Shown in pieces: positions 39,001-42,000 of a DNA stretch of 64,000 nucleotides. Position numbers: made by a program. The stretch spans positions 249,360 through 313,359 of IMG/VR virus record IMGVR_UViG_3300032007_000006; one strand, 5' to 3'. The first letter of the stretch is position 1. The number at the start of each line of letters is the position of its first letter. This DNA comes from a virus. Lineage: Duplodnaviria; Heunggongvirae; Uroviricota; Caudoviricetes.

Positions 39001-42000
39001 TTATCAGGTCGCCGTTGCAGTAGATTTCAAGACTGCATCCAGTTGCGTTGAGAGAGCCAGTGCCTGCAATGGCGCATGACCACGAAACTGTGTCTCCAAC
39101 CTCGTACAGCACTCCCGTCTGAAGCGGATTGACTTCAGTGAGGGCCATCGAAATGTTGACATATGGATCAACCAGAGAAACGCTGAATGAATCGCTGTCG
39201 CTCAGTTCGCCGCTGACGGCAGAGCAGGAGATGGTCAAAGTGCCGCTTGCGTTGATGTCGTCCTTGGTGATTGTCTTCGTGTACTGCTGAGCTGAAGCGC
39301 CACCTCCTGGGACGGTGATGCTTCTGTTCGGCATTCCAGTGACGGTCAATGTAGTCGGCAGATTTGAGCCAGCACTTCTAAGAACAACGTTGAAAGTCAA
39401 TGTGTCGCCAATGTCGTACTTGTCTCCATTTGATGGAGAGGAAGTGACTGTAACAGTTAAAGTCAATGACTCTTCAACAGGCTCTCCACCCTGACCCTGT
39501 CCAGAAGAATTGGCTGCTGTTGCCCTGTTTGCTAGAAGAGCATGGAACAGCATTATTCCTGCTCCCTATGTTGAAGCGATGATAGAGGAACCTGCGTTCT
39601 TGGTCCACCAAGATAGCCAAGAGAGATTGTTGCAATTTCGCCGTCATTCTCCATATGCCAGCAGGCTATCTGATTTCCATCAAGAGAGACCAGCACTGGC
39701 TCTCCTTCTGCAAACCATGCAATGCCATTCTCTCCAAGGCTTCTGGCTCCATCAAGCGTTGCTGTGGAAAGAATGGTTGCAAGAGCATCTACTTCATCTT
39801 CAACATCGTTATAGACGGACTCCATTGTAATTGTTATCGGTTCATTCAGTTCATCTAAACTGGAGTTGACCATCTGCTCAACTTCATCGAAAACTGTGAT
39901 GCATTCCTGAAGCGCGCTCTTCAATGTGCTGGAGGCAGACTGGAGACGAATGCACATCTCCTGCACCTGGTCTGCTGAATCCTTGTCAACTATGTATTTT
40001 GCCAAACCTTCCTGGCAGGAAGCATATTCATTCTGCGTCATCTGAAATCGTGCTTGAAGTCGTTAGACAACTTCAACTAACACCATATTTACTTCCAGAC
40101 AACTAGAGCAGACAACTAGAGCATGTTCCAGAAATCCTCAAGAGAAACATTCATTTCCTGATGGTCAGACTTTCTTCGGACTTTTACAGTCTCCTTTCCT
40201 GCAAGACATTCATCAATAAGAACGCAGTTGTGGCTGGCAATTCCATCAGTCCAGTAGACGCTTCCATTTGCAACGTCCAAAAGATCATATACCCACGTTT
40301 TCTGTTTAATTTTCTTTATATTCAATACCTTAACACATCCATTGACAGAAAGGGCCTTCATGTCTGGAACTAGCAAGGAAGCTTCAATGAATTTTCCATC
40401 GACGAGCTGTATTCTGTGGTCTTCTGTGCATTTCAATCTTGTCCGATCATCAAATGACACTTCAAGAATGCTGTCAACCAGTCTTGCACGAAGTCCTTCA
40501 TATTTCTGGAAGCCAGTTGGAGTGAGAACCTGCTTGAACGTCTGAAACTTTTCTTTCAAGGCATGCTCTATTCCAGTTTGAACTGCATTTCCATCCGAAT
40601 TCTTCAGCGTCACAAGAGTTCCTTCTGCAACGCAGGAATAGGACTGACCACGAATGGAGTCCGATGAAGTGGTTGATGAAATGATTGAGCTTCCATTGGC
40701 CAGTTCCATTGAACCCTTGTTCCACGTCTTGACGCCACACTGCAGCCATTTTGGAAGATGCAGATAGGCCAGTTCAATTCTGCTCATTATTTCTCTGGCC
40801 TGGGCTCCCTTGTTGGCCAGTATTGCAACCTTCTTGTCTGGATTGAATAGAACGTAGTGCAGAATGAATGCTGTGCAGGTTGTTGTATTGTGGCTGACTA
40901 TTCCATTAGTGGACCACTTGTGTTCGCTGGTGTCCATTTCCATGTCATACATCTGCTCAATACGTTCTGTCTGCTCTATTGAAACTACAGCTTCAATGCC
41001 GCCATCTACTTGAATGCGGTCTCCAGTTTGAAGTTCAGAAGCCATGACCTTGCATCCGTCTTCAAAGAAGAGAAAATGATCATCGGCGCATTCAATCTCT
41101 CTGGTTTCAGTCCTGATCTTCCAGACCCAAAATGGTCTTGTGACATGCAGGGCCTTTGCAGGAGACATTTTCTCCCCGTCAAACACCTTCCATCCCTGCA
41201 ATGGAACTGTTTCCACTATCTTTTCTAGCATACCTTCAAGTCCCTAAAGCTGCTTGTCAAAGTAAATGATTCTGGAACGGCATTGAAGCGTTCAATCCAG
41301 GCGCCATCATGAAGTTCAAAGACATAGACTTCAACGGTTTCGGCCGTTTCGCATCCTGGAACGTATATTCTGGTTCCATCAAAAATGCACTGTACGTTTC
41401 TTCCATTGACCCAGGCCAGAACGTACTTTGACAAGTCATGACCAAGATACTCTGGAATATCTATTCCTTCGCTGGTGCAGGAATTGAAATACTTCCATAT
41501 TCTGGCAATAGGCCATATAATTCCCTCTCTTGGATCTGGCCTGTCAACTAGAACTTCAGTGTCATCATCGGCAGGAATCTCTGAAACTTCACCCCACACT
41601 GGGAATCCCTCGCGATCCTTCCATGTAGTCCAGTAGGATTCCACAATGACTGGAACATCTTCTTCAAGTTCCTGAACAGTTCTTAAATCTGGATCAATCA
41701 ATGTAGCGTGAACTATGTTTTGATGTATTCGTTCATCATACATGTCCTTTTTCTTGACAAATCCAAGACGCTCAATCATATAATGTCTTTCATATGGAAT
41801 ATAGACTGCATTTAGATCGGCATCATATGACCATTTCCAGTCTGGAATCTTGAAGCCATTGACAAAGACAAAGCACTTGTGTGGATCAAAAACGTCATCG
41901 TCCTGAAGCCAGGCAATCCAGTTTATAAACTCACCTTCCTCCCAATAGATGTAGTCTCTATTAGCCAGATGGCTCCAGTCGCTTGTAAGATATATTCTGG

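Follow-up and report, generated by a model that had tools for sequence, protein, structure and literature searches.

Does a natural protein chain that begins with the C-terminal fragment of a split intein (IntC) and ends with an N-terminal fragment (IntN) remain linear until it meets its proper partners, or does it close on itself into a circle? This question is posed by an open reading frame (ORF) at positions 40116–41231 on the minus strand of the stretch analysed here (hereafter the window, i.e., 64,000 nucleotides covering bases 249,360–313,359 of the IMG/VR virus record IMGVR_UViG_3300032007_000006), whose 371-amino-acid (aa) translation carries a piece of the large terminase protein (TerL) between two such fragments. 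The record is the 352,419-bp genome of a T4-like jumbo phage (~99% complete according to CheckV, 0 N, GC content of 43%), and DNA near-identical to it is found in cattle-gut metagenomes of 13 studies. Judged from sequence comparison, the ORF is very probably the central segment of a three-gene TerL of the T4 gp17 type, with productive ligation of the three pieces as the predicted main path of assembly.

The extein of this middle piece comprises 90 TerL residues in total, extending from just after the Walker A lysine through the Walker B Asp-Glu (84 + 6 residues), and is interrupted six residues short of its end by a cis mini-intein without endonuclease domain (Table 1). Residues 115–203 of the middle piece align to residues 166–254 of T4 gp17 (E value of 5e-19; gp17 residue numbers follow the 3ezk numbering). 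Translation reproduced exactly all boundaries that an earlier note on this DNA had drawn within the ORF (i.e., those of IntC, extein, cis mini-intein, CVLIDE, and IntN), while just four more codons are open upstream of its ATG (open frame of 375 aa). The IntC at its start and the IntN at its end are referred to as IntC1 and IntN2, and the fragments proposed to complement them as IntN1 (at the end of TerL piece 1) and IntC2 (opening TerL piece 3).

Against Pfam Intein_splicing, IntC1 matched at the domain end only and below threshold. A family profile made from 18 homologous N-termini matched some 20 solved inteins in the PDB (with VidaL at an E value of 2e-15, CatC at 1e-11, and gp41-1 at 5e-11, and further Spl DnaX, DnaB, NrdJ-1, PolB16, and others), and the matches without exception covered the final ~100 intein residues. 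Moreover, the AlphaFold2 (AF2) model of IntC1 (predicted local distance difference test, pLDDT, of 87) superposed on VidaL with a Z-score of 13.8 and a root-mean-square deviation (rmsd) of 3.1 Å over 110 residues (model 7–117 on chain 28–143), and all 50 of the 50 listed matches in a fold search were HINT domains, entered 20–40 residues past their start. In the model, IntC1 is a HINT fragment missing only the first strands, which fits the definition of an atypically split IntC. It also carries the block B His, block F, the block G terminal Asn, and a +1 Thr, with an Ala replacing the usual Thr in block B. The concern in the earlier note that the N-terminal 115 residues might prove not to be a HINT fragment is contradicted by both the profile matches and the AF2 fold. 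The cis mini-intein in turn matched CatC (E value of 1e-9), and its AF2 model (pLDDT >90) superposed on VidaL with a Z-score of 19.6 and an rmsd of 2.0 Å over 139 residues. A fold search with the whole 371-aa model was dominated by this mini-intein and is uninformative on the position of IntN2.

Piece 1 was sought by scanning all genome frames for a Walker A end followed by a Cys and a short tail, and only one ORF in the genome ends in ...RQSGK plus such a Cys and tail (a stricter Walker A pattern gave no match). Its extein ends in Walker A residues and aligns to gp17 residues 87–168, while piece 3 is encoded by the ORF at 3630–5003 on the plus strand of the window. Given the matched gp17 segments (i.e., 87–168, 166–254, and 252–567), the three exteins tile gp17 with no gap or overlap and add up to 547 aa, and the attributes of a gp17-type large terminase (Walker A, Walker B, RNaseH-like nuclease, and collinearity) come together only once the three exteins are joined. 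Both split inteins have the atypical layout, i.e., a split before block B, an IntN shorter than ~50 aa, an IntC longer than 100 aa, and separate polypeptides: in split intein 1, an IntN of 45 aa followed by a stop and an IntC of 115 aa following a start codon; in split intein 2, an IntN of 30 aa followed by a stop and an IntC of 107 aa following a start codon.

Table 1. Parts of the three TerL pieces and genes in their surroundings (window positions, unless given as genome positions).
Feature	Position	Strand	Description
TerL piece 1, 152 aa	genome 81,037–81,495	minus	Outside the window; ...ILSCRQSGK, then 45-aa IntN1 (CVTGSTKVKV...)
IntC1, aa 1–115	40887–41231	minus	Block B CADDH, block F MYDMEMD, block G IVSHN, +1 Thr116 (then TTT)
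Extein a, aa 116–199	40635–40886	minus	TerL ATPase, from directly past the Walker A Lys to ...RGQSYS; Pfam Terminase_6N positions 11–98
Cis mini-intein, aa 200–335	40227–40634	minus	Cys1 (CVAEG...), TEDH block B, ...IASHN, +1 Cys336
Extein b, CVLIDE, aa 336–341	40209–40226	minus	Walker B; aligned with gp17 ...MIYIDE
IntN2, aa 342–371 (30 aa)	40119–40208	minus	Cys1 (CLAGKETV...), block A only; stop at 40116–40118
IntC2, 107 aa	3630–3950	plus	Start of TerL piece 3; ends in VEVSN, +1 Cys (VEVSN/CAF); CatC E 8e-8
Extein of piece 3	3951–5003	plus	Rest of ATPase and RNaseH-like nuclease domain; gp17 252–567 E 3e-45; Terminase_6C E 7e-10
Giant structural-protein gene, 2727 aa	41225–49408	minus	Upstream of middle TerL piece
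Baseplate wedge homologue	49410–51191		
Giant ORF, 2822 aa	27134–35602	minus	Structural block
Giant ORF, 1437 aa	21295–25608	minus	Structural block
Giant ORF, 1756 aa	15430–20700	minus	Structural block
D12-class adenine methyltransferase	1123–2130		Upstream of TerL piece 3
cREC_REC receiver-domain protein	2127–2426		Upstream of TerL piece 3

Searches with Terminase_6N and Terminase_6C, which cover terminases of the T4 type, revealed no second TerL in the 352-kb genome: Terminase_6N matched pieces 2 and 3 plus one weak candidate (E value of 0.02, at 10.5 kb), and Terminase_6C matched piece 3 only. The weak candidate was considered as piece 1 and rejected, as it reads as a PhoH-like ATPase. Since the genome is a metagenome assembly and the search for a second terminase covered the T4 type only, the pieces might be decaying remnants or an assembly artefact, with packaging left to another enzyme. 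We regard this as the least credible of the explanations considered. Contigs from other studies cover the whole middle ORF and both its ends (one record corresponding to 39600–41239), and these independent contigs, together with relatives that have identical starts and stops, make an assembly artefact very unlikely. The reading frames are intact, there is no Terminase_6N or Terminase_6C match besides those to the TerL pieces and the PhoH-like one, and the exteins are well conserved: in close relatives, identity to the window protein is 88–100% for the extein, 65–97% for IntC1, 57–83% for IntN2, and 44–92% for the mini-intein, the latter thus dropping as low as 44–50%.

The same five parts, with starts and stops in the same places, recur in nine metagenomic proteins of 371–376 aa (44–95% identity and 99–100% coverage), and four proteins of 231–242 aa have the same layout without the mini-intein (P0014–P0016 and P0019). 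These close relatives come from ENA/Logan assemblies, while an IMG/VR scan with the family alignment yielded only relatives of at most 44% identity, in cis or two-piece form. One family protein (P0013) has a GIY-YIG-like insert in its mini-intein, and such an insert is also listed for P0017. The cis mini-intein before Walker B is in other words polymorphic (absent, mini, or with a GIY-YIG-like insert), as one would expect if homing and loss are still going on. For the partner fragments, the piece 1 family counts 75 proteins and the piece 3 family 29 (~450–478 aa, with the same IntC2-type start), and the split-intein sequences collected amount to 59 of IntN1, 16 of IntN2, and 29 of IntC2. All 16 IntN2 relatives terminate at the same point and share the consensus ClaGKEtv.vRrK...eeFW. 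Between the window protein and its 95% identical relative P0005, 9 of the 30 IntN2 residues differ, compared to 3 of 115 in IntC1 and 0 of 84 in the extein; this divergence could stem from rapid local change or from recombination at the 3′ end, and may go along with changes in IntC2.

Conservation at the level of individual residues bears on whether the intein halves are still active. His52, Asp96, His114, Asn115, and Thr116 are invariant among 14 relatives, and Cys342, D340, and E341 are invariant as well. It might be argued that the halves are splicing-dead and serve as mere non-covalent docking modules holding the three TerL fragments together, given that intein 2 has a Ser for the usual His before its terminal Asn (VEVSN) and intein 1 the above-mentioned Ala for Thr in block B (CADDH). 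Each of the two deviations is conserved in its own family, which speaks against decay, and the nucleophiles and terminal Asn are invariant (i.e., Cys1 of IntN1 and IntN2, Asn115-Thr116, and SN followed by Cys in IntC2). Moreover, one split falls within the P-loop and the other immediately behind Walker B; if the chain were held together non-covalently at these points, a bulky intein would stay behind at the ATP site. Docking without splicing is therefore very improbable.

In the ligation that we favour, the mini-intein would excise itself in cis, IntC1 and the IntN1 at the end of piece 1 would join ...RQSGK to TTTC..., and IntN2 and the IntC2 at the start of piece 3 would join ...VLIDE to CAFIAK.... 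The outcome would be a TerL of 547 aa, in which the ATP site is present only after all three reactions. Both split inteins are expected to be selective enough for this ligation to be productive, with head-to-tail cyclisation through IntC1 and IntN2, which chemistry and geometry would allow, as a possible side reaction along a minor path.

This expectation leans on the different origins of the two inteins. IntC1 and IntC2 share only 27% identity over 103 aa, and each is nearer to inteins found at the same site in other phages: IntC1 shares 30–40% identity with inteins of the Walker A site, among them the contiguous one in Kuttervirus CBA6, and IntC2 shares 32% with the contiguous intein at the Walker B site in Vibrio phage vB_VmeM-32. 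The IntN families likewise have distinct motifs, i.e., a conserved HPxxNxGxPF hairpin in IntN1 and RrKsdg..eeFW, two residues shorter there, in IntN2. By these comparisons, the two split inteins appear to be distant paralogues from different insertion-site lineages; together with the low identity between IntC1 and IntC2, this favours orthogonality. The layout has moreover been retained in the sole terminase gene seen, in relatives down to 44% identity.

Other phages present the same insertion sites in further combinations, among them intermediates that have fewer splits (a slash marking the insertion or split point). The TerL of Kuttervirus CBA6 (KM389302) has a contiguous intein at GK/TT, and the TerL coding sequence of vB_VmeM-32 (KU160494) has an IntC start at GK/TT and a contiguous intein at DE/CAF; at most one site is split in these two phages, so that neither has an IntC-extein-IntN middle piece. 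An IntC1-type fragment is combined with a contiguous intein 2 at DE/CAF in P0222 as well, while L018 (IMGVR_UViG_3300013121_000024) has a two-gene TerL split at GK/TT, the genes being adjacent. The latter is a 150-kb T4-like contig, in which the locus (3863–6233) consists of a 138-aa piece 1 that ends in a short IntN, 190 nt, and a 587-aa IntC-TerL, followed by a tail sheath gene and with no endonuclease gene between the TerL halves. Finally, middle pieces of the IntC-extein-IntN type are also found with other second split sites, at RGxS[IY][SN]/C in P0037 and P0047, and further downstream in P0024, indicating that this layout arose more than once.

The arrangement of the middle piece calls to mind split-intein circular ligation of peptides and proteins (SICLOPPS), in which an engineered IntC-target-IntN fusion, with the two halves of one intein, is used for backbone cyclisation. 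The order of the parts is indeed the same, i.e., an IntC, a target starting with a nucleophile (here Thr116), and an IntN starting with Cys, and the earlier note had this topology and its formal match to the SICLOPPS layout right (IntC1 1–115, Thr116...Glu341, and IntN2 342–371). In contrast to SICLOPPS, the halves here belong to two inteins whose partners are encoded elsewhere. The earlier note had further envisaged that a cyclic or deleted product could limit terminase dose, for which no support was found.

Substantial cross-reaction would mean that IntN2 folds onto the IntC1 of its own chain, SICLOPPS-like, yielding a circular 90-residue P-loop-to-Walker-B fragment or head-to-tail oligomers, and that IntN1 and IntC2 join pieces 1 and 3 into a TerL without its middle, a regulatory role being optional. 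A number of observations point that way and weigh against a strictly selective three-piece ligation. When the non-cognate complex of IntC1 (1–121) and CVLIDE plus IntN2 (336–371) was predicted, the median ipSAE was 0.62, compared to 0.02 for the best control (a mark that 58 of 80 solved complexes, but also 2 of 110 mismatched pairs, attained). Three runs shared at least 93% of the contacts, with a partner pLDDT of at least 75, and the predicted interface was canonical: 348–354 paired with the strand 13–17, and Cys342–Gly345 lay against block F (94–97) and His-Asn-Thr (113–116). Given this canonical docking, cross-reaction between IntC1 and IntN2, and hence cyclisation, could occur to some extent. 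The prediction also passes close cousins of the true partner, so that a pass speaks for compatibility of shape and is no measure of reactivity or selectivity.

In the AF2 monomer, IntN2 likewise forms two strands and a helix (pLDDT of ~80) as if docked, the docking being judged from strands and pLDDT only. Both IntC halves are acidic (net charges of –10 and –7) and both IntN halves begin with a basic strand, and with this common polarity charge does not enforce selectivity. In addition, the split falls at roughly the same point of the structure in the two inteins, and the IntN-pairing strand of IntC is near-identical (GWKVF vs. GWKPF). An intramolecular reaction has the advantage of concentration as well, and in P-loop ATPases the ATP site is where Walker A and Walker B come together, which should bring the extein ends near each other. 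Terminase is required in small amounts; the conserved layout therefore does not demand strict orthogonality, and some loss to side products would be tolerable. In published work, it is mainly the atypically split inteins that show cross-talk (PMC7090010), and according to a review the IntN of AceL-TerL is accepted by GOS-TerL (PMC11766414). RNA data do not help the case for the middle piece either: small contigs were found within the middle ORF (40679–40878) in one RNA library, with nothing over the remainder, and so few contigs from a single library are unusable as proof of its transcription.

Nevertheless, cross-reaction on a substantial scale seems quite unlikely, given the separate site lineages of the two inteins and their low IntC identity, the differing motifs and loop lengths of the IntN families, and the persistence of the layout in the only terminase gene. 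P0222 adds to this, as it holds a contiguous relative of intein 2 and an IntC1-type fragment in one chain; if this is the older state, selection against domain swapping could predate the split.

Atypically split TerL inteins as such are already known, i.e., the "Terminase" of Dassa 2009 (PMC2677866; 122-aa IntC), AceL-TerL, GOS-TerL, the consensus Cat (PDB 6DSL; PMC11766414), and VidaL (PDB 6VGV). The inteins described here share with them the gp17-type host, the short block-A IntN (25–37 aa in the known cases vs. 30 and 45 aa here), and the long IntC (104–122 aa), which holds blocks B, F, and G. Like AceL-TerL and Cat, intein 2 has Cys1 and Cys+1, and IntC2 matches CatC, while the best match of IntC1 is VidaL. 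However, the known cases join two fragments, whereas here two inteins act on one protein and the middle chain runs from IntC to IntN. The fractured gene of Dassa also has adjacent halves on one strand, separated by an endonuclease gene, a definition that the present phage falls outside of, with TerL pieces at 81 kb (minus strand), 253 kb (plus strand), and 290 kb (minus strand) of the genome, i.e., 36 to 209 kb apart and on both strands. Structural genes flank the middle piece, and no match to a free-standing endonuclease gene was found among both neighbours of piece 1, both genes flanking piece 3, and the downstream neighbour of the middle piece.

Another counterpart is engineered tandem trans-splicing, in which a middle segment carries the IntC of one pair and the IntN of another, and orthogonality is required (PMC12707363; orthogonal library in PMC7090010). 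Compared to those designs, the present arrangement is natural and conserved in an essential viral gene, both its split inteins are of the atypical kind, and a third intein, in cis, lies only six residues away from the second junction. In the literature searched, in which subscription journals were largely beyond reach, neither a natural host protein put together by two split inteins nor a naturally occurring IntC-extein-IntN chain was found. Jug phages of the gut are reported to have their terL in two or three fragments through group I introns (PMC12880540), and were rejected as a precedent because the mechanism differs.

As to its genetic setting, the middle piece lies in a baseplate/tail block, where the stop of the 2727-aa gene shares 7 nt with the ATG of the middle piece (GTATGCTAG). 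This overlap suggests that the middle TerL piece is translationally coupled to the 2727-aa ORF. In three relatives on independent contigs (L095, L096, and L097), the order is the same as in the window, i.e., a giant gene, a 372-aa piece, a gene of ~160 aa, and a 673-aa gene, and the giant gene is separated from the middle piece by a gap of 2 nt or overlaps it by 1 nt. The structural block around the middle piece has four giant ORFs, all on the minus strand. Directly downstream, the window contains a 13-bp direct tandem repeat (TCTAGTTGTCTG + C or G; 40090–40118) that starts within the stop codon of the middle piece, and contigs from three other metagenome runs have one copy fewer (13 nt absent at 40096). 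Upstream of piece 3, the region 1123–3623 encodes, besides the genes in Table 1, a 390-aa protein of unknown function (phrog_12709). The phage genome is unusually intein-rich: at least 10 more Intein_splicing matches occur genome-wide, several of them with internal stops (e.g., at 146.9–148.6 kb, 187 kb, 232–233 kb, 247–248.8 kb, and 255.9–257.3 kb of the genome).

Inteins that are atypically split and have a short IntN are prized for protein labelling and semi-synthesis, and the family described here offers natural variants of split-intein halves that can be mined. Engineered three-segment ligation requires two mutually blind pairs, and nature appears to run such a scheme on an essential enzyme. 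Taken at its widest, and in this form still rather doubtful, the finding would mean that a clade of cattle-gut jumbo phages evolved a pair of atypically split inteins, mutually orthogonal and with an IntN of 45 and of 30 aa, by which an essential enzyme is built from three chains, or else a leaky pair, in which the middle piece would partly close on itself into a circular P-loop fragment, with a possible effect on terminase supply. For the biology of the phage, three-piece ligation would imply that the packaging motor has a complete ATP site only after three splicing events, on pieces that come from different parts of the genome, the middle one from within the baseplate/tail block.

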